Of a stretch of 64,000 nucleotides of DNA, positions 2,832-31,119 are shown piece after piece. The position numbers and the translations under genes were made by a program. Where the stretch lies: positions 43,156 through 107,155 of the forward strand of contig JBAQFJ010000001.1 of NCBI GenBank assembly GCA_049287205.1. Direction: 5' to 3'. Source of the DNA: Microgenomates group bacterium. GTDB lineage: Bacteria > Patescibacteriota > Microgenomatia > UBA10105 > UBA927. Within the stretch, counting starts at the first letter, position 1. Every line of letters begins with the position of its first letter. The notes beneath the pieces were generated by a model. The model saw only the letters and a list, made by a program, of their open reading frames with translations, had not been told where the DNA came from and made no database searches.

Positions 2832-3863
2832 ATGAAGCCGTTTTTTAGCATTATTATCCCGTATCATAATTCGAAAGATACGATTGCATCGTTACTAGCA
2901 TCCATTTATTTTTCCAAGAAACGCCCTCGTGTCGAAGTCATCATTGTTGATGATGCTTCAACCATTCTTTTAACAATAAAAGATTTGAAACCATCCTTTG
3001 TCCGTTCCCTGGCGGTTAAAATCATACGATTCAAAAAAAATAAAGGGCCGGCTATTGCAAGAAACAGGGGAGTGGAACAAGCCGGTGGCGAATATATCGT
3101 CTTTCTTGACGGCGATGTAAAACTCTTTCCTGATGCGCTTCATAATTTATGGAAACTGTATACCGATGACCCCGATATTCATGCGGTCACCGGTGTTTGG
3201 AGTAAAGAGCAGAAATCAACAGCATTCTTTCCGAATTTTAAGGCGCTTCGTGATTGGAGTTATTGGACGAATGAACGGGAGAGTGGACATTATTATTATT
3301 TGTTTTCGACCCGTATCGCTTCCATTAGGAAAGCAATATTTTTGCGGCTTGGCGGGTTTGATGAATCCTATGCAGGCCCGTTAATTGAAGATATCGCATT
3401 TACGTATAAAATCGCGACACGGTACGCCGTTATTTTTGCGTCAAATGTGCGCGTATATCATGAGTTTGAATCGTTTTTGCCGATAGCAAAGAAATATTTT
3501 TTGCGTGCCTATTATTGGACGCTTCTGTTTGAAGAGCGCCGAAAATTTGATCCGGTTGCAACAACGTGGAAAGAAGCGGTGACGGGAATAAGTGGAGCGG
3601 CACTTGCAGGGTTGAGTGTCCTTGCATGCGCAAGTTTGTTTTTGCCAATGGGAGCAGTACAAACAACCCTCTGGATAGGAGTAGCCGTGTTGTTTTTAGG
3701 ACACCTCTACCTCGTCCGAAAATTCCTGCGGTTTATCTATGCGGAAAAAGGACTGAAATTTACCGTCCAAAGTTATTTTATGGGTATTGTTTTATATTGT
3801 TTTATTACTGCAGGCGGCGTGTGGTCGCTCGTTCATCCTCCAAAAAATAAACAGATGCGGTAA
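2832..3863 (+). CDS. family 2 glycosyltransferase with C-terminal TM helices
   Basis: FSIIIPYHNS...VDDAS...FLDGDV motifs. Hydrophobic C-terminal third. Confidence 0.7.
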   Translation: MKPFFSIIIPYHNSKDTIASLLASIYFSKKRPRVEVIIVDDASTILLTIKDLKPSFVRSLAVKIIRFKKNKGPAIARNRGVEQAGGEYIVFLDGDVKLFPDALHNLWKLYTDDPDIHAVTGVWSKEQKSTAFFPNFKALRDWSYWTNERESGHYYYLFSTRIASIRKAIFLRLGGFDESYAGPLIEDIAFTYKIATRYAVIFASNVRVYHEFESFLPIAKKYFLRAYYWTLLFEERRKFDPVATTWKEAVTGISGAALAGLSVLACASLFLPMGAVQTTLWIGVAVLFLGHLYLVRKFLRFIYAEKGLKFTVQSYFMGIVLYCFITAGGVWSLVHPPKNKQMR

Positions 3864-7187: not shown

Positions 7188-7709
7188 ATGAAAAAGGGTT
7201 TTTCTCTTATTGAGCTTTTAGTTGTTATCGCAATAACAGCAGTTCTTACTGCTATTGCGCTGCCAAATTTTTTAAGCGCCCGTGAACGCGCCAGGGATGC
7301 GAAACGGAAGCAGGAAATGCATGAGATGAAGAATTCACTCAGGTTATATTACAACGATTATCAGACGTATCCGATCGCAGCTAGCGGAGGCATCGGTAAA
7401 TTGAATTATATTTCCGGATGCGGGGTGGACGCGGCGACGATGTGTCCGTGCACCTCTGCAACACAAAACGCGGATTTTGCGGTAGGCACTGCGTGTGAAA
7501 CCGTGTATATGAAACGATTTCCGAGTGAATTCGGATCGCGTATGTACTATTCGCAGTATGATTCGGGAAATGATTTTTGTCTGAAAGCCGCATTGGAAAA
7601 CGCAGCGGACCCAGATATTCTCACGTCAAGATGCCGGTGTCAAACTGCCTGTGGGATTGTAGATTGTACTACTGCTACCGGTACAGATTACTACGTGTGT
7701 GCAGACTGA
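7188..7709 (+). CDS. type IV pilin / pseudopilin GspG-like
   Basis: MKKGFSLIELLVVIAITAVLTAIALPNF and RARDAKRKQEMHEMKNSLRLYYNDYQTYP. C-terminal DPDIL..C motif shared with pilin 1. Confidence 0.8.
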   Translation: MKKGFSLIELLVVIAITAVLTAIALPNFLSARERARDAKRKQEMHEMKNSLRLYYNDYQTYPIAASGGIGKLNYISGCGVDAATMCPCTSATQNADFAVGTACETVYMKRFPSEFGSRMYYSQYDSGNDFCLKAALENAADPDILTSRCRCQTACGIVDCTTATGTDYYVCAD

Positions 7710-8120
7710 TTATTTTTTGTAGGTTGAGTAGCTTATCTTCATGGGGACGCTATCAGATGTTGTGAATCCGCATTTTTCATAAAAAGGAACGACACACTTT
7801 TCAGGATTAATCGGAATGTAGAGTGCACCCACTGCGCGAAGTTTTTCAATTATTTTATCAACTAATTGTCTTCCTATTCCTTGTTTTCGATAGTCTTTGC
7901 GTACTACCAGTTTTTGTATGTAACCTCGTCTGCCATCAAACGACCCAAATGCGGAACCGATGATTTCTCCGTTATCTTCCATAAGAAGGCTTAGATTTGG
8001 ATTTTTTTTCAAAAAGAGTTGGAATGGTTCATATGCATCTAATTCGTTAACAAAATAGTTATCTTTCCAAAAGGGAAGAAGACGCGCATGGTCCTCAATA
8101 GTCATTGTTCGAAATATCAT
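7710..8120 (-). CDS. GNAT family N-acetyltransferase
   Basis: Motif-A-like core KLVVRKDYRKQGIGRQLV. 136 aa. Confidence 0.65.
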   Translation of the reverse strand: MIFRTMTIEDHARLLPFWKDNYFVNELDAYEPFQLFLKKNPNLSLLMEDNGEIIGSAFGSFDGRRGYIQKLVVRKDYRKQGIGRQLVDKIIEKLRAVGALYIPINPEKCVVPFYEKCGFTTSDSVPMKISYSTYKK

Positions 8121-8135
8121 AATAGTTGTTGCAAA

Positions 8136-15461
<7,326 letters not shown>

Positions 15462-16634: not shown

Positions 16635-19292
16635 ATGCAAAACCTTATACATTCGTCTATAATAGAACACATGCAGGATACAGACGGCGCTCAAATTATT
16701 TCTGTAGGTGATACGCAACATTCTTCAGATTTTGAAGCTAATGCTTCTGTCTTTCGTGGTGTCGATAATCAAAAAATTGAGGTCAAATGGCAAACATTTT
16801 GGAAGGACAGTCAGCTCGATGTTGTTGATATCGAGGGAGCAAAGAAGCCGTTTTATAACCTTATGATGTTCCCATATCCTTCTGCTGAAGGGTTACATGT
16901 TGGGAATATGTATGCATTCACAGGCTCAGATATTTATGGCAGATTCATGCGTATGCAAGGCTACGACGTCTTTGAGCCGATTGGTTTGGATGGTTTTGGT
17001 ATTCACAGTGAAAACTACGCGCTCAAGGTAGGGAAGCATCCAAAAGAACATGCCGCTGATTCCGAAAAGAATTTTTATAATCAATTACATAAAATTGGCG
17101 CCATGTTTGATTGGACGCGGACTGTTGAAACGTACCATCCTGATTATTACCGCTGGACACAATGGGTGTTTGTTCAGATGTTTAAGCATGGACTTGCTTA
17201 TCGAAATACTGCATCAGTAAACTGGTGCAACAGTTGTAAAACGGTACTTTCTGATGAGCAAGTGTTGCAAAAAACCGTTGATAGCGTTTCTACGCAAGTT
17301 TGTGAAAGATGCGGGAATAAAGTTGAAAAAAAATCGTTAGAACAATGGTTTTTTAGAATTACCGCATATGCGGGAAAATTGTTGGATCATTTGCCTAGCC
17401 TCAATTGGTCAGAGAAAGTAAAGACCGCGCAAGAAGCGTGGATTGGAAAAAAAGATGGTATCACAATAACGTACCCATTGATTGATGGGGATGATAAGGA
17501 AATTGGAAGTGTCAATTGTTTTACCACAAGACCGGATACTAATTTTGGTGCGACATTTGTTGTGATGGCACCAGAGCATCAATATATATCGCATATACTT
17601 AAATATGTATCAAATGATATCAAAAAGTCTATTGAATTATATTGTGAAAATACAAAAAAGAAGTCAGAAGCAGATAGGATTACTGAAGGACGGATAAAAA
17701 CAGGGGTAAACACAGGACTATTTTGTCTCAATTCATTAAACGGCGCAAAAATTCCATTATATATAAGCGATTTTGTGTTATCCGGCTTTGGGACAGGGGT
17801 GGTTGTTGGAGTTCCCGCACATGATGTGCGTGATTTTGAGTTTGCCCAAGTATTTAACTTGCCTGTCATTCGTGTGGTGAAGGGAAAAGACGGAAAAGCA
17901 GATGCAATAACGAAGAAAGAAGATGTACAGGAAAAGGAAGGAACGATGATGCAGTCTCAATTCTTGGATGGGTTAGACATTCATGAGGCAACGAGCAAAA
18001 TTATGGATCATTTAGAGGAAAAAGGTTGGGGAAGCCGAACAACAACGTATCATTTGCGTGACTGGACGATTTCAAGACAGCGGTATTGGGGTGCGCCGAT
18101 CCCGATGATTTACTGTGAGTCATGTGCCACAAAAAAAGTGGGTGATCAGGAGTCTATGCCGGGGTGGTGGACAGTACCTGAAGACCAATTGCCTGTTGTC
18201 TTGCCTGATATAGAGGATTACAAGCCACGAGACGATGGGATAGGGCCGCTTGCCAAGCATAAAGAGTTTTTTGAAGTCAAATGTCCGCACTGCGGGGGTG
18301 ATGCGCGAAGAGAAACAGATGTCTGTGACACATTTCTTGATAGCTCTTGGTATTATTTGCGATATCCGAGTGTTGGAAGCGCAACAACTGACACTCTTCC
18401 ATTTGATCCTGAATTGACGAAAAAATGGCTTCCTGTTGCTATGTATACAGGAGGGGCAGAACATAGCGTCCTCCATCTTATGTATAGTCGGTTTGTGACC
18501 ATGGCACTTTATGATTTTGGTTTTCTCCCATTTGACGAGCCGTTTACTAATTTTTTTGCGCACGGACTTGTGATTAAAGATGGTGCGAAGATGAGTAAAA
18601 GCAAAGGGAACGTAGTTAATCCTGACACATACATTGAAAAATACGGTGCAGATGCCCTCCGAATGTACTTAATGTTCATGGGGCCATTTGCAGATGGGGG
18701 AGATTTTCGGGATACAGGTATGGAAGGTATGAATCGCTTTATCGGTCGTATTTGGCGCTTCATGAGTTCGAGTGCTAACATATCTCCGGAAGAATCTGAC
18801 GCGATAATTCACAGACAATTACAAATGGCTATCGCACGCGTAACAGATGATTTAGTGAAACGAAGATATAATACGGCAATTGCAGCGCTTATGGAATTCA
18901 TGAATGTTACAACCAGCGGTGAAAAAAAGATTTCAGCGAGTGATGCAAAAGATTTTGTTAAAATCCTCGCGCCATTTGCTCCACATGTTGCTGAAGAACT
19001 TTGGGTGCGGTTGACGACAGGTGGTGATGAAATTCCTGCAACGTATACAACAGTACATAAAGAATCTTGGCCAATGTATGACAAAAGTCTATTAATTGAT
19101 AGTTCGATACAGTTTGTTATACAAGTAAACGGAAAGATGCGGGAAACTATTACCGTTTCTCGGACAGATGGTGAAAATCAGGAAAAAATTGAAACTCTGG
19201 CAAGGGGAAGCGAAAAGATCCAAAAGTTTGTAACGACACCAATAAAGAAAGTCATTTTCATCAAAAATAAACTGATAAACTTTGTGGTGTAA
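16635..19292 (+). CDS. leuS: leucyl-tRNA synthetase
   Basis: PYPSAEGLHVGNMYAFTGSDIYGRFMRMQGYDVFEPIGLDGFGIHSEN and KMSKSKGN. Editing and anticodon-binding regions are present. The start is ambiguous between 16635 and 16671. Confidence 0.9.
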   Translation: MQNLIHSSIIEHMQDTDGAQIISVGDTQHSSDFEANASVFRGVDNQKIEVKWQTFWKDSQLDVVDIEGAKKPFYNLMMFPYPSAEGLHVGNMYAFTGSDIYGRFMRMQGYDVFEPIGLDGFGIHSENYALKVGKHPKEHAADSEKNFYNQLHKIGAMFDWTRTVETYHPDYYRWTQWVFVQMFKHGLAYRNTASVNWCNSCKTVLSDEQVLQKTVDSVSTQVCERCGNKVEKKSLEQWFFRITAYAGKLLDHLPSLNWSEKVKTAQEAWIGKKDGITITYPLIDGDDKEIGSVNCFTTRPDTNFGATFVVMAPEHQYISHILKYVSNDIKKSIELYCENTKKKSEADRITEGRIKTGVNTGLFCLNSLNGAKIPLYISDFVLSGFGTGVVVGVPAHDVRDFEFAQVFNLPVIRVVKGKDGKADAITKKEDVQEKEGTMMQSQFLDGLDIHEATSKIMDHLEEKGWGSRTTTYHLRDWTISRQRYWGAPIPMIYCESCATKKVGDQESMPGWWTVPEDQLPVVLPDIEDYKPRDDGIGPLAKHKEFFEVKCPHCGGDARRETDVCDTFLDSSWYYLRYPSVGSATTDTLPFDPELTKKWLPVAMYTGGAEHSVLHLMYSRFVTMALYDFGFLPFDEPFTNFFAHGLVIKDGAKMSKSKGNVVNPDTYIEKYGADALRMYLMFMGPFADGGDFRDTGMEGMNRFIGRIWRFMSSSANISPEESDAIIHRQLQMAIARVTDDLVKRRYNTAIAALMEFMNVTTSGEKKISASDAKDFVKILAPFAPHVAEELWVRLTTGGDEIPATYTTVHKESWPMYDKSLLIDSSIQFVIQVNGKMRETITVSRTDGENQEKIETLARGSEKIQKFVTTPIKKVIFIKNKLINFVV

Positions 19293-19991: not shown

Positions 19992-20837
19992 TTGTGCCCT
20001 ATGATTGATGTGAGCCTCGCCACCGCCTTTATTGCGCAAATTTTACCTGAACCGCATGCGGGGTTGCTTGCGGGTATTTTGTTTGGGGTTAAGTCAGTAA
20101 TCCCATATGAGTTGAAAAATGCATTGCAGACTACTGGAACGCTCCATATCACTGCTTTGTCCGGAATGAATATTACGATTTTAACGGGTATATTTTTTAG
20201 CACTTTTATTGTGTTTCTGCCACGGTTGTATGCAAGCATTCTTACGATCGGAGTGATAGGATTTTTTGTGTGGTTTGTTGGATATTCACCAAGTGTCGTT
20301 CGGGCCGCCATTATGGGCTGTATTACACTTTTGACAGCATTGACCGGCTATATTTCTATAGCACTATGTACATGGGGAATAACAGTCGTCGGTATGATTG
20401 TAGTACATCCTACGTGGGTAACGGATATTTCATTTCAACTTTCTGTACTTGCTTCATTAGGTATGATTTTGTTTAGTGCGAAGGGGGGTGCGGAGGGTGT
20501 GCAACGTATGCAGAGTGCGAAATGGCAATATATAGGGAAAAATGTCTATAGATGGATACAGAAAGAGCTTACTACAACGCTCTCCGCGCAAGTTTTTACG
20601 TTACCGCTTATTTTATTCACATTCGGCAGAATTTCATTGATCTCTCCGCTCACCAATCTCCTTATTGGGTGGACAATTCCCATTATTACGGTGCTCGGAT
20701 TGGCAGTATGTTTGTTTGGATTGTTTATACCTTCCGTATCATATATTCTTGGATGGGGCACATGGGTGTTTTTAGAGTTTGTAATTCGGATCGTACTATG
20801 GACAGGACATATACCATTTGCCAGTATTGGAAGATAA
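19992..20837 (+). CDS. comEC: ComEC/Rec2 competence channel, membrane (competence) domain only
   Basis: LLAGILFGVKSVIPYELKNALQTTGTLHITALSGMNITIL resembles the competence-domain signature. Polytopic. The ORF ends at 20837, and the ~300-bp gap that follows has no coding signal. Confidence 0.7.
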   Translation: MCPMIDVSLATAFIAQILPEPHAGLLAGILFGVKSVIPYELKNALQTTGTLHITALSGMNITILTGIFFSTFIVFLPRLYASILTIGVIGFFVWFVGYSPSVVRAAIMGCITLLTALTGYISIALCTWGITVVGMIVVHPTWVTDISFQLSVLASLGMILFSAKGGAEGVQRMQSAKWQYIGKNVYRWIQKELTTTLSAQVFTLPLILFTFGRISLISPLTNLLIGWTIPIITVLGLAVCLFGLFIPSVSYILGWGTWVFLEFVIRIVLWTGHIPFASIGR

Positions 20838-21134: not shown

Positions 21135-22043
21135 GTGAAATGTATGTTTAAATTAAAAACAGGATACTTCATCAGTGGTATTATTACAGGCTTAATATTA
21201 TTGTTTAATTTTTTCCAGCAATTACCGGATGGAAAATTGCATATCGTGTTTTGTAATGTCGGACAGGGGGATGCGACATACATTCAATTTCCCAGAGGAA
21301 AAGATATGTTGATTGATGGAGGACCCGGCGGGCAAACGCCAAAGGTTCTAGGATGCCTTGCAAAGCACATGTCAATGTTTGATAGAGAAATTGATGTTGT
21401 GGTACTTACACACCCGCAAGAAGACCATTTAGGAGGCTTGAATGAAATCGTAAAACGATATCAGGTACAGTATTTTGTGTACAGTGGAAGAACTGCAATG
21501 ACAGAAGGGTTTACAACCCTCATAAAACAGATCCGTGAAAAACAAATTCCTGTGCGTATTGCCGTGACAGGGGAAGACATAGTAATTGGAAAAACGCAAT
21601 TTTCTGTGCTTTTTCCACAACCATCATCGGTTGCTTACGCGGGGAAATCAACGGTGTTGGGTGCAACAGATGTCAATGAATCGTGCCTTGTTTTGCGCCT
21701 ATCGTACGGTTCTTTTGACGCTTTGTTTATGGGTGATGCGGATAGTCAGGTGGATCCGGAACTGGTCAAACAACCATTTCGAACACAAGGGAAGCTGGAA
21801 GTATTGAAAGTCCCGCATCACGGCTCTAAAACCGGCATGACAGAAGGGTTTTTTACTTGGATTGGACTCACGGATACTGCCATTATTTCTGTTGGGAAAA
21901 ATATGTACGGGCATCCCGCGCCGGAAACACTGCAACAACTGACAAAACGGAACATGCACGTGCAACGGACGGATCAGGAAGGGGATATAGAAATTATTAC
22001 GGATGGAAAGACATGGAGCGTTAAAACAGCAAAAACAAAGTAG
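21135..22043 (+). CDS. comEC: ComEC C-terminal metallo-beta-lactamase domain encoded as a separate ORF
   Basis: An N-terminal TM segment, then HIVFCNVGQGDATYIQFPRGKDMLIDGGPG...VLTHPQEDHLGGL...KVPHHGS, which is the MBL-fold ComEC nuclease domain. Confidence 0.75.
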   Translation: MKCMFKLKTGYFISGIITGLILLFNFFQQLPDGKLHIVFCNVGQGDATYIQFPRGKDMLIDGGPGGQTPKVLGCLAKHMSMFDREIDVVVLTHPQEDHLGGLNEIVKRYQVQYFVYSGRTAMTEGFTTLIKQIREKQIPVRIAVTGEDIVIGKTQFSVLFPQPSSVAYAGKSTVLGATDVNESCLVLRLSYGSFDALFMGDADSQVDPELVKQPFRTQGKLEVLKVPHHGSKTGMTEGFFTWIGLTDTAIISVGKNMYGHPAPETLQQLTKRNMHVQRTDQEGDIEIITDGKTWSVKTAKTK

Positions 22044-22069
22044 TGTGTTTGTTGTATATTTTTCCTCTC

Positions 22070-22099
22070 TTGACAAAAGATTTTATTTCGTAGTATAGT
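22070..22099 (+). promoter_or_regulatory. sigma70-like promoter TTGACA-18-TATAGT
   Basis: TTGACA at 22070-22075, an 18-nt spacer, and TATAGT at 22094-22099. Confidence 0.5.
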
Positions 22100-22109
22100 A
22101 TTTACTTCA

Positions 22110-22331
22110 AAAGTAAATATGTGTATGGCGTTGATGAGGAAAGGTTTTTTAACCCTCGAGCCTCGGAGCCGGAAATCGAAGAAATTTTACTCTCTGTAAA
22201 AAAGTAGATTTCAAAAATGAGTGAAATGCAGTATGCATTTCTAAATGAAGGTGGCACCACGGCCTATTATGACCGTCCTTTTGTACTTCCATCCCTCCTT
22301 AGGGGTGGAGATACAAGCGGACGGTTTTTTT
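22110..22331 (+). promoter_or_regulatory. candidate T-box riboswitch leader (tRNA-sensing antiterminator) upstream of argH-argG-argS
   Basis: AATGAAGGTGGCACCACGG (22244-22262) matches the T-box consensus AATTAGGGTGGTACCGCGG at about 15 of 19 positions. ACGG (22258-22261) can pair with CCGT (22271-22274), the 5' arm of the terminator hairpin (ccgtcc...ggacgg, 22271-22324) that is followed by a 7-T run. AGTAG and GCGTTGA boxes lie upstream. Confidence 0.45.
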
Positions 22332-22542
22332 GTGGATTCGTAGTTATTTCGAGTCATCGAGAAATATATGAAATTTTATTGTTCTGACGATCTACACTTT
22401 TTATTTGGTATATCTGCCAGTGCTTCGTTTGTGCTCCGACGATCCTTCCGACCACGTTTGACGTGGCGACGCGCGTAAGCGCTACAAACTTCGTTTTTTT
22501 ATCCATCGTTTTTTCGTATCAATTTTTTAGCAAAGGAGGAAT

Positions 22543-24072
22543 ATGCAATCAAACATAGCAGTAAAAAATACACTTTGGGGCTCTGCATTCAGCAAACAGC
22601 CTAGTGCTGGCGTGCTTGCATTCACTGCAGGACGGGATGTTGTCGGTGTGCCGCCAGCTGACAGCGCACTCGTGCCATATGACACAACAGTAAACATGGC
22701 GCACTGCGTCATGCTCGCAAAACAGGGAATCATTCCTGTTGCAACTGCCGCAAAAATCGTGACTGAACTGGGTGCGTTACAAAAGCTTGTTACAGCGGGC
22801 AAATTTATTCTAGATCCGGCAAAAGAGGATGTGCATACAAACATAGAGTCTTGGCTTACTAAGCAGTTGGGAATGGAAATTGCCGGACAGCTCCATACCG
22901 CCAGATCAAGAAATGATCAGGTTGCGACTGATATGGCGTTGTATCTGAAAGATCAGACGATAGCGTTTGTTCAGGAAATAACTGCGCTTATATCTGTCCT
23001 TTTGGTCTTGGCAAAACACCATCAAACCACGATTATTCCCGGTTTTACGCATCATCAGCATGCCATGGTGACAACGCTCGGGCATATATGTTTAGGTTTT
23101 GCATCGATGATTTTGCATGATGCGAAAAAAGTTACGCAATGGATGGAGCTTCATGATGTAAGTCCGTTGGGGAGCATCGTGTCGTACGGCACGTCGCATC
23201 CTATTGATTCGGCCTACATTGCGGCGCTGTTGGGGTTTGCTAAATCAAATATAAATTCGCTTGACATGGTCATGAATCGTTGGGAAGCGGAAGCGGATCT
23301 TGCATATGCGCTTTCCAGTCTGATGAATCATTGTTCCTCGATTGCGGAAACACTCATTCTTTGGGCAACACCGGAGTTTGGGATGATTTCTCTGGCAGAT
23401 CAGTATTCAACAGGCAGTTCCATTATGCCGCAAAAGAAAAATCCTGATCCTTTGGAGGTGATAAAAGCAAAAACAAGCGTTGTGCACGGGTGTCTTTCGA
23501 GTTTGCTTGGTATTGGAAAAGCAAATTTCATCGGATATAACCGTGACACGCAATGGACGAAATATCTCATCATGGATGTCATCCATGAATGTGCGTTTGT
23601 TCCGTCAGTACTTGCCGGCGTGTTGCAAACATTGATTGTTCATACAGAAAGTATGGCAGGGTGGTGCACAAAAAATTTCATCGGTGCAACGACTGTCATG
23701 GAACAACTAACAGCAACCTATCATGTGCCGATGCGTCAGGCGAAGATTGCTGTGGAAAAAGCCGTACTGTATTCAAAAAAGAACGACACGATTCAAACAA
23801 TCGCACTGCATAAGGCCTTGAAAGAATTGCATATTGCCGTTTCGGTGACAAAAGAGGAAATAAGCGCGTGGCAAGATCCAAAAACGAGTATCTCGCTGAC
23901 GAAATCAGCAGGCGGTCCGGGAAAACAAGCAATGAAGCAGGCATTCGTTGATCTGGCGCGGGAAGTCGCGGTTATTCAGTCGTGGCTCGCGATTCAGAAA
24001 AAAAATAAAAAACACGCGCAAGATCTGCTTGAGAAAGCAGTACAAACGTTCGTAAAGAAAGGGAATATATGA
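22543..24072 (+). CDS. argH: argininosuccinate lyase
   Basis: RBS aaaggagg. TARSRNDQVATD and GSSIMPQKKNPD signatures. Confidence 0.9.
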   Translation: MQSNIAVKNTLWGSAFSKQPSAGVLAFTAGRDVVGVPPADSALVPYDTTVNMAHCVMLAKQGIIPVATAAKIVTELGALQKLVTAGKFILDPAKEDVHTNIESWLTKQLGMEIAGQLHTARSRNDQVATDMALYLKDQTIAFVQEITALISVLLVLAKHHQTTIIPGFTHHQHAMVTTLGHICLGFASMILHDAKKVTQWMELHDVSPLGSIVSYGTSHPIDSAYIAALLGFAKSNINSLDMVMNRWEAEADLAYALSSLMNHCSSIAETLILWATPEFGMISLADQYSTGSSIMPQKKNPDPLEVIKAKTSVVHGCLSSLLGIGKANFIGYNRDTQWTKYLIMDVIHECAFVPSVLAGVLQTLIVHTESMAGWCTKNFIGATTVMEQLTATYHVPMRQAKIAVEKAVLYSKKNDTIQTIALHKALKELHIAVSVTKEEISAWQDPKTSISLTKSAGGPGKQAMKQAFVDLAREVAVIQSWLAIQKKNKKHAQDLLEKAVQTFVKKGNI

Positions 24073-25340
24073 AACAAACAACAACATACATGAAAGTTGC
24101 TTCTCATGAAGCAAAAGAAGGCCATATCAAAAAAGTGATTTTACTCTACTCAGGAGGGCTGGATACCAGTGTGATTTTGAAATGGATCAAAGATACGTAT
24201 CATGCTGAGGTGATTACCCTTACCATGGATTTAGGGCAGCAGGGAGATGATCTGGTGGCGATTCAGAAAAAAGCGTTGCTGCTTGGGGCAAAAAAGGCAA
24301 TTGTTATGGATGTGAAAGATGAGTTTGCAAAAGAATATATTGCTTTGGGAATTCAGGCAAATGCCAGTTATCAGGGCGAGTATCATTTATCAACGCCCAT
24401 TGGCCGTGCGCTTATCGCGAAAAAAGCAGTGGAAATTGCAAAAATGTATGGCGCTGATGCGATAGCCCACGGATGCACAGGAAAAGGAAATGATCAGGTG
24501 CGTTTGGAAGGGTATATGGTGACCTTAAATCCGGATATTAAAATTATCGCGCCTGTGCGTGAATGGAATATGGATAGAAATGAAGAAATACTCTATGCCA
24601 AGAAACACGGGATTCCAGTTCCAACTAGTATTGATTTTCCGTACAGCGTGGACGACAACATGTGGGGGATGACGTGGGAAGGCGGAGAAATTGAGGACCC
24701 AAAATATATTCCACTCGTGGAAAAGTTTTTGACGACGTACACACTTGCTAAAAACGCGCCGGATAAAGAAGAATTCATAACGATAACTTTTAAAAAAGGC
24801 ATCCCTGTTGCTGTAAACGGTAAAGCAATGAAGCTATCATCGCTCATTTTGGCATTAAACAACATTGCCGGCGCGCATGGTGTTGGTGTCGTGCATCTTG
24901 TGGAAGATCGTTTGGTTGGGCTGAAAGACAGAGGAGTGTATGAGCTTCCTGCAGGGCACGTGATTATTTCTGCACATAAGGCGCTCGAGCAATATGTTTC
25001 CACAAGAGAGCTCAATGAGCTGAAAAATCAGTTGGATATCAAATGGGCGTATCTTTGCTATGGTGCAAAATGGTTTGATCCGACGATGGACGCACTCAAT
25101 AGCTTTAATACAACTGTGAATCAAAAGGTGAATGGCGTTGTGACAGTCAAATTGTATAAGGGTACTGCGACCGTAGTTGCCATGACGTCGCCGTACGCGA
25201 TGCATCATGCGTCATTTGGAACCAAGAGCGGATACAGCTATAACGTCAATGCGAGCGCGGGGTTCATTGAAGTCTACACATTGCAGATGAAGTTGTCTAA
25301 ACAGGTAGAGAAGCAAGCACAACACATGCATAAAAAATGA
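24069..25340 (+). CDS. argG: argininosuccinate synthase
   Basis: VILLYSGGLDTSVILKWI PP-loop and AHGCTGKGNDQVR. Overlaps argH by 4 nt. Confidence 0.9.
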   Translation: MKQTTTYMKVASHEAKEGHIKKVILLYSGGLDTSVILKWIKDTYHAEVITLTMDLGQQGDDLVAIQKKALLLGAKKAIVMDVKDEFAKEYIALGIQANASYQGEYHLSTPIGRALIAKKAVEIAKMYGADAIAHGCTGKGNDQVRLEGYMVTLNPDIKIIAPVREWNMDRNEEILYAKKHGIPVPTSIDFPYSVDDNMWGMTWEGGEIEDPKYIPLVEKFLTTYTLAKNAPDKEEFITITFKKGIPVAVNGKAMKLSSLILALNNIAGAHGVGVVHLVEDRLVGLKDRGVYELPAGHVIISAHKALEQYVSTRELNELKNQLDIKWAYLCYGAKWFDPTMDALNSFNTTVNQKVNGVVTVKLYKGTATVVAMTSPYAMHHASFGTKSGYSYNVNASAGFIEVYTLQMKLSKQVEKQAQHMHKK

Positions 25341-25349
25341 ATTTCTGCT

Positions 25350-27233
25350 ATGATGCAAACAATGAAACAACAACTTACTGAACTTTTTACTTCTGTGCTT
25401 GCTTCCATGGATGTTTCAGGTGTTGTCCCCCAAGTCTCTCGACCGGAACATGCAGGTCATGGCGATTACACAACGAACATTGCGATGATTGTTGCCAAGG
25501 AAAAAAAGCAGAATCCTATAACTATTGCCAATGAGCTAAAGAAAGCAATTGATACTCAGTTAGCTACAACGAAGCATTCAAAGGGGGATCAGAATAACAC
25601 CAAAGATAGTCAAACTATGTCAGATTTTGGTGATGAGAAACAGGAAGAAAATATATTACAGGCTATAGCAAAAATTGAGGTCGCACCGCCGGGGTTTATT
25701 AACGTCTTTTTATCCGAGGCTAGTCTTAGCACTCATGTGATGAGACTGCCAAAATCAGAGAAAAGCGCCAGAATAAGCCAAAAATCAACAGGGAAGAAGA
25801 TCATGGTGGAATATGCGCATCCAAATACGCACAAAGCCTTCCATATCGGGCATCTTCGCAATATTACGACCGGAGAATGCATGGCGCGGCTTCTTGAAGC
25901 GGTTGGAAACAAGGTTATTCGGGCAAACTATCAAGGAGATGTGGGGCTTCATATAGGAAAATGTTTATATGGTATTTTGCATATTCCCAACGGGATTTTA
26001 CAACTTGATTCGCTCACAAACATAAATGGCAAAGTTGATTTTTTGGCCTATGCCTATGTCTACGGAGCGAATGCGTATGAAAAAGGCGGCGAGGCAAAAC
26101 TCGAAGTGGAGCGTATTAATAAACAAATTTACGCAAAAGACCCGACGATCTATCCGTTGTATGAAAAGACTCGGCAATGGAGTCTGGATTATTTTGCCAC
26201 CATCTATAAACGGGTGGGAACGAAGTTCGACCATTATTATTTTGAATCCGAGACCTATGAAAACGGGAAACAACTTGTTCTTGATGGGGTAAAACAAGGA
26301 ATTTTCAAAGAAGACAAGGGCGCAATTATTTTTGAGGGAGAAAAATACGGACTGCATAACCGCGTGTTTATCACGGGCGAAGGAAATCCGACCTATGAGG
26401 CAAAAGACATGGGTCTTGCCAAACTGCAGTTTGCAGATTACAAACCATCAGAGGTCATCCATTGTGTCGGCTCGGAACAAATCGGGTACTTCCAAGTCAT
26501 TATAGAGGCTCTTAGCCATCTTCTTCCGGAAACAACCGGCAAAGAAAAACATTTGGTGTATGGCTGGGTGAGGCTAAAAGAAGGCAAAATGTCGAGTCGT
26601 ACAGGACAGGTAGTACTAGGAGAAACGCTTCTTGACAATGTAAAGTCAGAAATTCAGAACATACTATCTCATAATGATACAAAGTACTCAGAAAGAGATC
26701 AAACTAATATATCTGAAGCCTGTGCCATTGCCGCGGTAAAGTATAGTTTCTTAAAAGTTGGGACAACGCAGGATGTGGCGTTTGACATGAAAGAGTCAGT
26801 AAATATCCATGGTGACTCGGGTCCATATCTTCTATACACATTTGCCCGTTGTCAGTCCGTGCTTCGCAAAGCATCTATTCAGCTTACCAAAGAAGTGATT
26901 AAGAAAATGAAACCGGAAGAACGGGAAGTCGCACGATTGTTGTTGTATTTTCCTGAGGTAATACAAGAAGCAGCAGATACGTTTGCTCCCAACATGATTT
27001 GTACGTATTTATTTACCCTCGCACAGGCATTTAATGTGTTCTATGCGAATTGTCCGATTCTCGTCTCTGACACGGAGATGTCAAAGGCGGAGATGATCAT
27101 TGCTGAAAAAGAGGGAACAAAACTGCCATCAAACAACATTTCCTCCTTCCGTATTATGCTTACGGAAGCAACGGCAAATACACTCGGTCTTGGACTTCAC
27201 ATTTTGGGAATTCCAACGATAGAAAAGATGTAA
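25350..27233 (+). CDS. argS: arginyl-tRNA synthetase
   Basis: AHPNTHKAFHIGHLRN (HIGH), KMSSRTGQ, and a DALR-like anticodon-binding C-terminus. Confidence 0.85.
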   Translation: MMQTMKQQLTELFTSVLASMDVSGVVPQVSRPEHAGHGDYTTNIAMIVAKEKKQNPITIANELKKAIDTQLATTKHSKGDQNNTKDSQTMSDFGDEKQEENILQAIAKIEVAPPGFINVFLSEASLSTHVMRLPKSEKSARISQKSTGKKIMVEYAHPNTHKAFHIGHLRNITTGECMARLLEAVGNKVIRANYQGDVGLHIGKCLYGILHIPNGILQLDSLTNINGKVDFLAYAYVYGANAYEKGGEAKLEVERINKQIYAKDPTIYPLYEKTRQWSLDYFATIYKRVGTKFDHYYFESETYENGKQLVLDGVKQGIFKEDKGAIIFEGEKYGLHNRVFITGEGNPTYEAKDMGLAKLQFADYKPSEVIHCVGSEQIGYFQVIIEALSHLLPETTGKEKHLVYGWVRLKEGKMSSRTGQVVLGETLLDNVKSEIQNILSHNDTKYSERDQTNISEACAIAAVKYSFLKVGTTQDVAFDMKESVNIHGDSGPYLLYTFARCQSVLRKASIQLTKEVIKKMKPEEREVARLLLYFPEVIQEAADTFAPNMICTYLFTLAQAFNVFYANCPILVSDTEMSKAEMIIAEKEGTKLPSNNISSFRIMLTEATANTLGLGLHILGIPTIEKM

Positions 27234-28757: not shown

Positions 28758-28943
28758 TTGACTTTTCATAAGCAGAGCATATAATCAGCTTATATTTGTT
28801 GTCCCTGCCGGCACTTTGCGCCGGTTTTTTTTGGAGCAACACATAGTATTTTTGCTCTTTGACATATCGTGTGAATACAAGAGTATTTCTTATTGATAGG
28901 CAACGATATAGCCCTTTTTGGGGTTATATGTTTTGCCTATCAA
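28758..28943 (+). promoter_or_regulatory. leader module copy 1: consensus promoter, hairpin+T-run, conserved 15-mer, long-range stem
   Basis: TTGACT(28758)-16-TATAAT(28780-28785). Hairpin ccggc/gccgg at 28808-28824 with a T8 run. CTTTGACATATCGTG at 28857-28871. 12-bp stem attgataGGCAA / TTGCCtatcaat at 28892-28903 / 28932-28943. Confidence 0.5.
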
Positions 28944-29869: not shown

Positions 29870-30096
29870 ACAAAAGAGAAAGCACACCCAAACTTTGGTT
29901 ATCTATGAGCTGAGGTCTCATACAAAGTTGTTCGTTAGGGGTGTGTTTTTTTTGGTGTTGACAGAGTGTAGGGGATTCTGGTTAAATAGAAAAAAGCGCT
30001 CGAAAAACAAGCTTTTTCAGGCGCGTTTTTGTTTTTTCTCAAGTAACGAACGATCGCAACATCCTTGGAGACGTTCACCAAACGGAAAAACAACCT

Positions 30097-30948: not shown

Positions 30949-31119
30949 TTGACTTTTTCTTCCCTGGGCATATAATACCCACTAGTACAATTTGTCTCTG
31001 CCTTTCGCTTGCGAAAGGTTTTTTGTGGCAATCAAGTATTTTTTCGTTCTTTGACATATCGTGTGAAAAAAATGTGGGCAAGGTGGTGTCGTCAATATAT
31101 TGACGGTTTATTTTGCCCA
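30949..31119 (+). promoter_or_regulatory. leader module copy 2
   Basis: TTGACT(30949)-16-TATAAT(30971-30976). Hairpin cctttcgc/gcgaaagg at 31001-31018 with a T6 run. CTTTGACATATCGTG at 31049-31063. Stem tgGGCAA / TTGCCca at 31075-31081 / 31113-31119, enclosing the perfect 16-nt palindrome cgtcaatatattgacg (31090-31105). Confidence 0.5.

Follow-up and report, generated by a model that had tools for sequence, protein, structure and literature searches.

A minimal T-box leader, probably responsive to tRNA-Arg, upstream of the argH-argG-argS operon of a Microgenomates group bacterium

The subject of this work is a leader RNA that precedes the argH-argG-argS operon of a Microgenomates group bacterium. 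The DNA analysed, called here the window, is a stretch of 64,000 nucleotides (nt) from contig JBAQFJ010000001.1 of assembly GCA_049287205.1, numbered from its first nucleotide, and the promoter and leader lie at 22070-22331 of its plus strand. The host belongs to the candidate phyla radiation (CPR), and the nearest relatives of its ArgH come from Gottesmanbacteria and other Patescibacteria. Judging from the sequence and from its comparison with homologous leaders, it is probable that this RNA is a transcription-terminating T-box of minimal form, which controls argH-argG-argS in response to tRNA-Arg. A preliminary description of the region had proposed a canonical antiterminator/terminator switch, making the operon a tRNA-Arg-sensing unit; both the switch and the unit are supported by the comparative analysis, but the leader is a minimal variant and not a canonical T-box.

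Results

The promoter noticed in the preliminary description (22070-22099, plus strand; TTGACA at 22070-22075, an 18-nt spacer and TATAGT at 22094-22099) is of the sigma-70 type and agrees with the consensus at 11 of 12 positions. In a promoter scan with a criterion of 9/12, it was the sole promoter-like site on the plus strand within 21900-22700. The absence of alternatives on this strand between the terminator and argH supports control of the operon through the leader. A second promoter suggested there (ctgacg...TGGTATATC) fell below the scan criterion, and L081, the closest relative, has not kept its -10 element, the bases at that site retaining hairpin potential instead. TTGACA and a TAnnnT -10 element are kept at the same position across eight homologous leaders (the L214 promoter is cut by the contig end), and transcription would start at about 22105-22107. 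The elements of the leader are as follows.

22127..22170 (+): Stem I, ultrashort, delimited by the Rfam alignment and covariation
22127-22129 with 22168-22170 (+): helix P1a of Stem I, GGC/GCC
GUU-GA on the 5' side, GA at 22166-22167 on the 3' side (+): K-turn at the base of Stem I
22135-22139 with 22161-22165 (+): helix P1b of Stem I, UGAGG/CCUCG
Between the P1b strands (+): specifier loop of Stem I, composed of AAA, a 12-nt distal hairpin (22143-22154) and CUCGAG
22157-22159 (+): specifier codon CGA (Arg), with purine G at 22160, directly 5' of the P1b 3' strand
22172..22212 (+): Stem II, with basal helix GAAAUC/GAUUUC and distal helix UUUUAC/GUAAAA
22213..22222 (+): linker AAAAAU and purines GAG(U), 5' of Stem III
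22223..22241 (+): Stem III hairpin (GAAAUGCA, loop GUA, UGCAUUUC), aligned to Stem III by Rfam
22248..22279 (+): T-box sequence and antiterminator (A1, bulge, A2)
22249-22251 with 22277-22279 (+): helix A1, AGG/CCU
22252-22258 (+): 7-nt T-box bulge UGGCACC, of which UGGC would pair with tRNA 3' GCCA
22259-22262 with 22273-22276 (+): helix A2, ACGG/CCGU
22271-22326 (+): two-tier terminator hairpin with conserved apex CCCUCCUUAGGGG, then U7 at 22325-22331

Two sequence boxes pointed out previously find their place in this structure. GCGTTGA (22128-22134) corresponds to the GA motif of the Stem I K-turn, which in full reads GGC-GUU-GA-U...G-GA-GCC, and AGTAG (22203-22207) provides AGUA of an S-turn-type internal loop in Stem II, where GAAGAAA (22178-22184) stands opposite AAGUA (22202-22206). 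The Stem III hairpin is preceded by GAGUG, with GAG invariant, and followed by UAAAUGA, in agreement with the RRRxG-Stem III-AA motif; this motif, the GAA/AGUA S-turn of Stem II and the GAG-Stem III arrangement are all features described in PMC7583486. The T-box core AATGAAGGTGGCACCACGG occurs at 22244-22262, exactly as had been claimed, and AAGGUGGCACCACGG at 22248-22262 agrees with the T-box consensus AGGGUGGNACCGCG at 11 of 13 specified positions.

The antiterminator and the terminator are mutually exclusive, as the strand 22273-22279 is common to both. The ACGG/CCGT pairing thought to compete with the terminator does exist, although its coordinates had been given with an error of 1-2 nt (the correct ones are 22259-22262 and 22273-22276). 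The proposed terminator hairpin, in which ccgtcc (22273-22278) pairs with ggacgg (22319-22324), and the run of seven T residues at 22325-22331 were likewise found. Its minimum folding energy is -35.3 kcal/mol, as compared with -6.6 kcal/mol for the antiterminator alone. Because the terminator is far more stable, the default state of the leader would be off, as in known T-boxes. The 231-nt leader as a whole folds at z = -4.2 relative to shuffled sequences.

Related loci, denoted by L with a number, were retrieved as encoding ArgH homologues. In Microgenomates-type genomes, argH is preceded by a full-length leader at eight more loci (L081, L082, L048, L085, L086, L087, L211 and L214), and L209 and L213 hold partial ones; argH, argG and argS are present downstream of the leader at every locus. 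ArgH proteins of eight leader-bearing relatives are 55-68% identical to that of the window. P1a, the K-turn, P1b, UCGAG, the GAAGAAA/AAGUA loop, the linker, GAG with Stem III and a long terminator followed by U6-7 are common to all full-length leaders. The same is true of AGGGUGGCACCAC, with CAAC read in L086, and the bulge UGGCACC has one A variant, also in L086. UCGAG and GAAGAAA are separated by 22 nt in seven of eight loci and by 21 nt in L211.

Conservation of the structure was assessed with a covariance model (R1) built from four leaders, which recovered the other five at 71-114 bits and found nothing else in the window. An R1-based alignment of eight leaders had 91.3% of cells paired and compensatory changes in 27 of 36 modelled pairs, a level reached by none of 500 shuffles; controls with slid partners were 39-51% paired. 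In the alignment of eight leaders, P1a and P1b are 97.5-100% paired, with double (compensatory) changes in six of their eight pairs, and such changes affect all 11 pairs of the two Stem II helices and six of the eight pairs of Stem III. Helices A1 (100% paired) and A2 (81%) are largely invariant. For the terminator, an RNAalifold consensus over nine leaders comprises 22 pairs, six of them with compensatory changes.

A metagenome scan with the DNA pattern GGTGGNAMCAC...GTCCYTTTG was dominated by canonical Firmicute T-boxes and did not yield additional CPR leaders. The loci obtained in this way were used as a negative control for R1, which did not exceed 32.5 bits on 80 loci found through the T-box sequence pattern, mostly canonical T-box leaders. 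A genome scan by ArgH alignment, based on universal ArgH motifs, gave, among the matches listed, mostly unrelated bacteria and one relevant locus, L048.

Stem III itself varies in size. It carries a large apical insertion in L082 (e.g. 2715-2770), L048, L085, L086, L087, L211 and L214, made of a small hairpin with a conserved CAAGGC loop, a U-run and a second hairpin; the window and L081 have a simple Stem III.

Across the leaders, that of the window included, folding energies of the terminators lie between -30.6 and -35.3 kcal/mol, with U6-7 after the hairpin, and the antiterminators range from -6 to -22 kcal/mol. Hairpin-plus-U terminators are enriched in the genome region of the window (28 found, against 14.8 +/- 4.3 in shuffles), and for this reason intrinsic termination is plausibly in use in the host. 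Termination is the probable regulated step, but one could also consider a genuine T-box acting on translation or RNA stability, like the actinobacterial class, since ultrashort Stem I has so far been tied to translational control (PMC7583486). L087/L088 (9943-10003; a Gottesmanbacteria genome) would fit such a mode: the spacer is missing, the argH ATG directly follows the U-run, and AAGGGGA, resembling a Shine-Dalgarno (SD) sequence, lies in the terminator 3' strand, so that the ribosome-binding site would be sequestered in that lineage. There, the T-box helix could gate translation as well as transcription. In the window, however, the SD of argH (22532-22539) is located 200 nt downstream of the switch helix and does not pair with it; SD sequestration without a U-run, typical of the translational class, was not found in the window, and an SD-like sequence occurs in the helix only in L087/L088. 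Moreover, all nine leaders keep a strong hairpin with an immediate U6-7, the signature of an intrinsic terminator. In the light of these data and of the enrichment of terminators in this genome region, an action on translation or RNA stability is quite unlikely, and we favor a T-box that terminates transcription.

No match to Rfam at gathering thresholds was obtained anywhere in the window. The T-box family RF00230, whose gathering score is 93 bits, aligned over its full model length with 22122-22283 at 48.7 bits (E = 1.5e-9 for 801 nt, 1.2e-7 for the 64-kb window), the K-turn, Stem III, T-box and antiterminator being aligned with high posterior probability. Related leaders scored 42.8-56.4 bits or were undetected, L087 even at E <= 0.05. 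Further T-boxes were seen neither elsewhere in the 64-kb window, including the region of leuS, nor near ileS and another synthetase gene in L210. The preliminary description had regarded a score below the gathering threshold, or the lack of a Stem I with K-turn and specifier loop, as sufficient to reject a T-box. Formally, the former applies here (48.7 < 93), but the shortfall can be traced to two architectural deletions, of distal Stem I and of the IIA/B region, and not to missing homology; Stem I with its K-turn and specifier loop is present and covaries. An unusual architecture, and not a false positive, accounts for the low score. Annotation pipelines which use the Rfam gathering score would not report leaders of this class.

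The first deletion concerns the AG bulge and the distal-loop elbow platform, both absent from Stem I, where 18 nt replace 73 positions of RF00230 in the Rfam alignment. In L048, L086 and L087 the distal Stem I hairpin is wholly absent, and the specifier is found in a terminal loop of 5-7 nt, similar to an anticodon loop. The second deletion removes the IIA/B pseudoknot and the F-box: the Rfam alignment deletes the region, every leader has a linker of 6-9 A/U-rich nt between Stem II and GAG, and in the window AAAAAU occupies the site where the 21-nt pseudoknot normally sits. Among the features by which T-boxes are recognized, the leader thus lacks three (a score at or above the gathering threshold, the distal platform for the tRNA elbow and the IIA/B pseudoknot), and has a K-turn Stem I, a specifier followed by a purine, an S-turn Stem II, a purine-flanked Stem III, an antiterminator bulge and a terminator with a U-run.

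These losses, together with the low Rfam score, could be understood if the leader were a decayed relic which no longer binds tRNA and serves as a constitutive partial terminator or an RNA-stability element, as both lost modules were reported to be important for tRNA binding in the T-boxes studied (PMC7583486). Nevertheless, UCGAG, UGGCACC, the S-turn loop and GAG have remained nearly unchanged while the helices gained compensatory changes, and this over lineages with just 55-68% ArgH identity. The spacing between the specifier and Stem II is also fixed, at 21-22 nt, and actinobacterial ileS T-boxes function without the elbow platform (PMC7583486). We therefore find decay to a relic very unlikely, and prefer a functional T-box in which Stem II might make up for the missing platform and pseudoknot.

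The identity of the cognate tRNA depends on how the specifier loop is read. In TBDB, the codon is placed immediately before the last nucleotide of this loop, a purine (PMC7778990), and we adopted this rule. Applied to CUCGAG, it gives CGA (Arg) followed by G, the codon whose identification had been called for in the preliminary description. TCGAG is invariant in the eight aligned leaders and is also present in L214. In the same register, L210 (gene order argG-argH-argS, 7-nt terminal loop GUCGCGA, 56.4 bits with RF00230) has CGC, and L212 from the WWE3 group (GAA-CGA-G, 42.8 bits) has CGA, giving arginine codons CGA, CGC and CGA in three CPR lineages, each with an arg operon downstream. In the -1 register, the window, L210 and L212 would read UCG, UCG and ACG, which correspond to no single amino acid.

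The codons overlapping in the hexamer, and the lack of codon variation among the nine close leaders, might still be taken to indicate another specifier, UCG (Ser), CUC (Leu) or GAG (Glu). However, the standard rule points to CGA, the same register yields CGC in L210 and CGA in L212 while other registers differ in amino acid between lineages, and argH, argG and argS follow at every locus. A specifier other than that for arginine is thus extremely improbable. For the arginine specifier, a tRNA-Arg with the anticodon UCG, or possibly ICG, is predicted, and from UGGC in the bulge its discriminator should be G. The L212 bulge is UGGU, and the discriminator of a tRNA-Arg (anticodon CCU) encoded nearby is A, which fits the expected covariation.

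The L212 locus shows one more peculiarity. A sub-threshold T-box at 2921-3253 precedes a gene of the arginine-deiminase/DDAH family and an M20 peptidase gene, upstream of argH-argG-argS. An enzyme that is generally considered catabolic would here stand behind an arginine T-box; its role might rather be to provide citrulline.

A separate problem is the region between the terminator and argH. The gap, previously estimated at about 210 nt, is 211 nt long up to the ATG at 22543, and contains the following features.

22332..22542 (+): 211-nt spacer with a hairpin, a short open reading frame (ORF) and a block matching L081
22337-22372 (+): spacer hairpin within this interval, directly after the T-box terminator, inner stem 22347-22352 with 22357-22362
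22368-22478 (+): short ORF of 36 codons, six of them Arg and four in-frame CGA, ending in VLRRSFRPRLTWRRA*

It had been considered previously that the leader might serve just a short upstream transcript. We found no sign of this: the leader-argH arrangement is kept in nine loci, and in L087 argH starts right after the terminator U-run. The spacer itself is not a neutral sequence. The apex of its hairpin, GAGUCAUCGA, is shared by the window, L213 (~30-72) and L214 (~337-372), and by inspection the outer stem differs in a compensatory manner among the three loci (UAUUUC/GAAAUA, CUUUCC/GGAAAAG and CUCUUU/AAAGAG). Further downstream, the block at 22418-22503 closely matches L081, except for 21 nt inserted in the window. 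We rejected the idea that this block is a repeated or mobile element, since it is present in a single copy in the window and otherwise only in L081. A second intrinsic terminator at 22427-22500 was rejected as well, as the U-run is not adjoined by a hairpin and the stretch does not fold better than shuffled sequences.

It is conceivable that the short ORF provides a second check on arginine, in addition to the T-box, if it encodes an Arg-codon-rich leader peptide (22368-22478, ...VLRRSFRPRLTWRRA*) and ribosomes stall on its in-frame CGA codons, which are identical to the specifier of the T-box. The ORF is kept in L081 (2850-2939), with the same ATG, an in-frame 21-nt indel and the ending VLRRFRRA*, the form common to both loci being ...VLRR(x)RRA*. 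All four CGA triplets of the block are in frame, and the long ORFs of the window have just 2.9% Arg codons, of which CGA makes up 14%. As RNA, the conserved block is thermodynamically ordinary (z = -0.8 for the window, -0.35 for L081), and L082, L211, L213 and L214 likewise have open frames rich in Arg in their spacers. On the other hand, the SD sequence is weak, and we saw no convincing coupled terminator or SD-sequestering structure, the U-run beginning 11 nt past the nearest hairpin. The frames in L048 and L086 contain one Arg codon only, those in L213 and L214 lack a start codon, the spacer is very short or missing in L087 and L209, and the residues from the start to the LRR motif are not conserved. 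In addition, CG-rich hairpins yield CGN codons in one frame by chance. The short ORF could encode a leader peptide or could have arisen as a by-product of RNA motifs, and control by ribosome stalling on top of the T-box seems to us rather unlikely. A leader peptide starting at AUG or UUG just past the terminator in L082, L048, L086 and L211 was also considered and rejected, as neither its frame nor its Arg content is conserved.

In other lineages, a hairpin found right after the U-run is followed by a 75-nt hairpin that extends from AAUCCC to GGGAUUUGUGG. In L082 (2901-2975), L048 (2894-2968) and L211 (9779-9870), the interval from the terminator to argH contains such a long hairpin (-36 to -45 kcal/mol). 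Between L082 and L048, its 26 consensus pairs include eight compensatory changes and no one-sided ones, and a slightly longer stretch of L048 folds at z = -3.6. A consensus of spacer hairpins across five lineages gave no pairs, owing to poor alignment, the L082/L048 pair alone being clear. If the spacer, by means of either an Arg-codon leader peptide or the conserved long hairpin, formed a second stage after the minimal transcriptional T-box, the region would be a two-checkpoint sensor of tRNA-Arg charging, in which the T-box would capture tRNA by no more than a specifier loop resembling an anticodon loop and the S-turn Stem II, dispensing with elbow docking and pseudoknot. We regard this as rather unlikely. 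In some Firmicute T-box systems, stable 5' hairpins remaining after leader processing stabilise the read-through mRNAs. By analogy, it is possible that the spacer hairpins are stabilisers of read-through mRNA.

Two other observations concern this region. The 3' end of the AAUCCC-GGGAUUUGUGG hairpin resembles that of the T-box terminator (GGGGAUUUUUUGAUGG). In L085, an ORF of 216 amino acids (aa) with no Pfam match lies between the terminator and argH (7276-7926), and its end overlaps the argH start.

The operon unites the steps from citrulline to arginine with arginyl-tRNA synthetase. Its parts, assigned from Pfam domains and the names of ArgH homologues, are given below.

22532..27233 (+): operon, including the SD
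22532-22539 (+): SD AAAGGAGG, preceding argH
22543-24072 (+): argH, Pfam Lyase_1, homologues named argininosuccinate lyase
24069-25340 (+): argG, Pfam Arginosuc_synth and its C-terminal domain
25350-27233 (+): argS, Pfam tRNA-synt_1d, DALR_1 and Arg_tRNA_synt_N

The local gene order is leuS (16635-19292), comEA, comEC as two ORFs, the leader, argH, argG and argS. The parts of comEC, 'Competence' and metallo-beta-lactamase ORFs at 19992-20837 and 21135-22043, are about 300 nt apart. As the split recurs in L081, L082, L085, L086, L087 and L211, it represents a conserved arrangement and not an assembly frameshift. Within 8136-15461, the GC content rises to 53-63% (peak at 10001-14000), as compared with a background of ~42%, and this island is located inside an ORF of 2,441 aa on the minus strand; giant ORFs of 2,966-3,278 aa occur at the equivalent position upstream of leuS in L086, L087 and L211. 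At 28758-28832 and 30949-31025, a near-consensus promoter (TTGACT, 16-nt spacer, TATAAT) has a GC-rich hairpin with a T-run no more than ~25 nt downstream, which would produce very short transcripts or represent further attenuator-type leaders. A sub-threshold match to the 'rnk_pseudo' leader was obtained at 29933-30038 (40.6 bits, threshold 55). Finally, over the 64 kb a positive GC skew, typically +0.09 to +0.19, was measured for 30 of 32 intervals of two kb, which recalls the disparity between strands that has been reported from other Microgenomates genomes (PMC7143001, on a different genome of 801 kb).

Discussion

We propose that transcription would begin at the conserved promoter (22070-22099), and that the very short Stem I would then fold, its K-turn setting the S-turn of Stem II beside the specifier loop, which displays CGA and a purine. 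The anticodon of tRNA-Arg would pair with CGA. If the tRNA is uncharged, its 3' GCCA could pair with UGGC of the 7-nt bulge and stabilise the weak antiterminator; formation of the latter would block the -35 kcal/mol terminator, and RNA polymerase would read through the 211-nt spacer into argH. With charged tRNA, the terminator would form and transcription would stop at the U-run (22325-22331).

Several facts weigh against this proposal. The RF00230 score of 48.7 bits is below the gathering score of 93 bits, and neither the window nor any of the nine related loci scanned reaches this threshold. The leader lacks the elbow platform and the IIA/B pseudoknot, to both of which an important part in tRNA binding has been attributed. 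All nine close leaders have the same codon, and the specifier call rests on the register, the operon context and two distant lineages. No tRNA gene was found in the 64-kb window or in the Microgenomates-type loci. Lastly, a conserved spacer of 211 nt intervenes between the terminator and argH.

In the literature searched, we found no paper linking T-boxes with CPR, Patescibacteria or Microgenomates, although such papers may exist. If the proposed mechanism is true, these leaders would be a natural counter-example to generalisations made in reviews, namely that transcriptional T-boxes depend on the elbow platform of a long Stem I for rapid capture of tRNA, and that Stem II acts jointly with the IIA/B pseudoknot. 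Among decoding modules coupled to termination, theirs would be the smallest known, a point of interest for structural biology and for tRNA-sensor engineering. As to CPR biology, a host whose genome contig measures ~1 Mb would still tie citrulline-to-arginine salvage and ArgRS to the direct sensing of tRNA charging.

Class I transcriptional T-boxes (RF00230; e.g. Bacillus subtilis tyrS and Firmicute argS/arginine leaders) have the same order of elements as the CPR leader. Both have a K-turn, a codon followed by a purine, a Stem II with the GAA/AGUA S-turn, purines before Stem III, a 7-nt UGGN ACC bulge, and an antiterminator in competition with an intrinsic terminator and its U-run; in both, genes for an aminoacyl-tRNA synthetase and for biosynthesis of the matching amino acid lie downstream. 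Transcriptional T-boxes, however, generally need a long Stem I, whose platform of interdigitated T-loops binds the tRNA elbow (PMC7583486). Unlike them, the CPR leader has a Stem I of at most 44 nt without the AG bulge and distal-loop platform, no IIA/B pseudoknot or F-box but only a linker of 6-9 nt, the T-box sequence ACCACG instead of ACCGCG, and a long, two-tier terminator with a conserved apex.

Stem I of intermediate or ultrashort length, in both cases platform-less, is a feature of most translational T-boxes, known mostly from Actinobacteria, and a 21-nt IIA/B pseudoknot comes after the S-turn Stem II, its deletion in an ileS T-box having lowered tRNA binding ~1,200-fold (PMC7583486). 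As far as the account of Sherwood et al. (2015) in PMC7583486 goes, Stem I of the class II ileS T-boxes of Mycobacterium tuberculosis and Nocardia farcinica is likewise truncated and devoid of the platform, and a K-turn with an S-turn Stem II beside the specifier presumably supplies the missing binding energy, as it might in the CPR leader. According to the same account, class II leaders differ in that they keep the 21-nt pseudoknot and sequester the SD sequence, whereas the CPR leader lacks the former and ends, 211 nt before the start codon, in a strong terminator with U7; they concern Ile and ileS in Actinobacteria, and the CPR leader Arg and argH-argG-argS in CPR/Patescibacteria.

The minimal transcriptional T-box of glyQS resembles the CPR leader in having reduced modules and no IIA/B pseudoknot, but its reduction is the opposite one, as glyQS dispenses with Stem II and retains a long Stem I that bears the elbow platform. 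CPR leaders thus appear to combine features not previously seen together, that is, an ultrashort Stem I, an S-turn Stem II, no room for the pseudoknot and a strong terminator, and probably represent a minimal terminator-type T-box which is, so far, specific to CPR arg operons.

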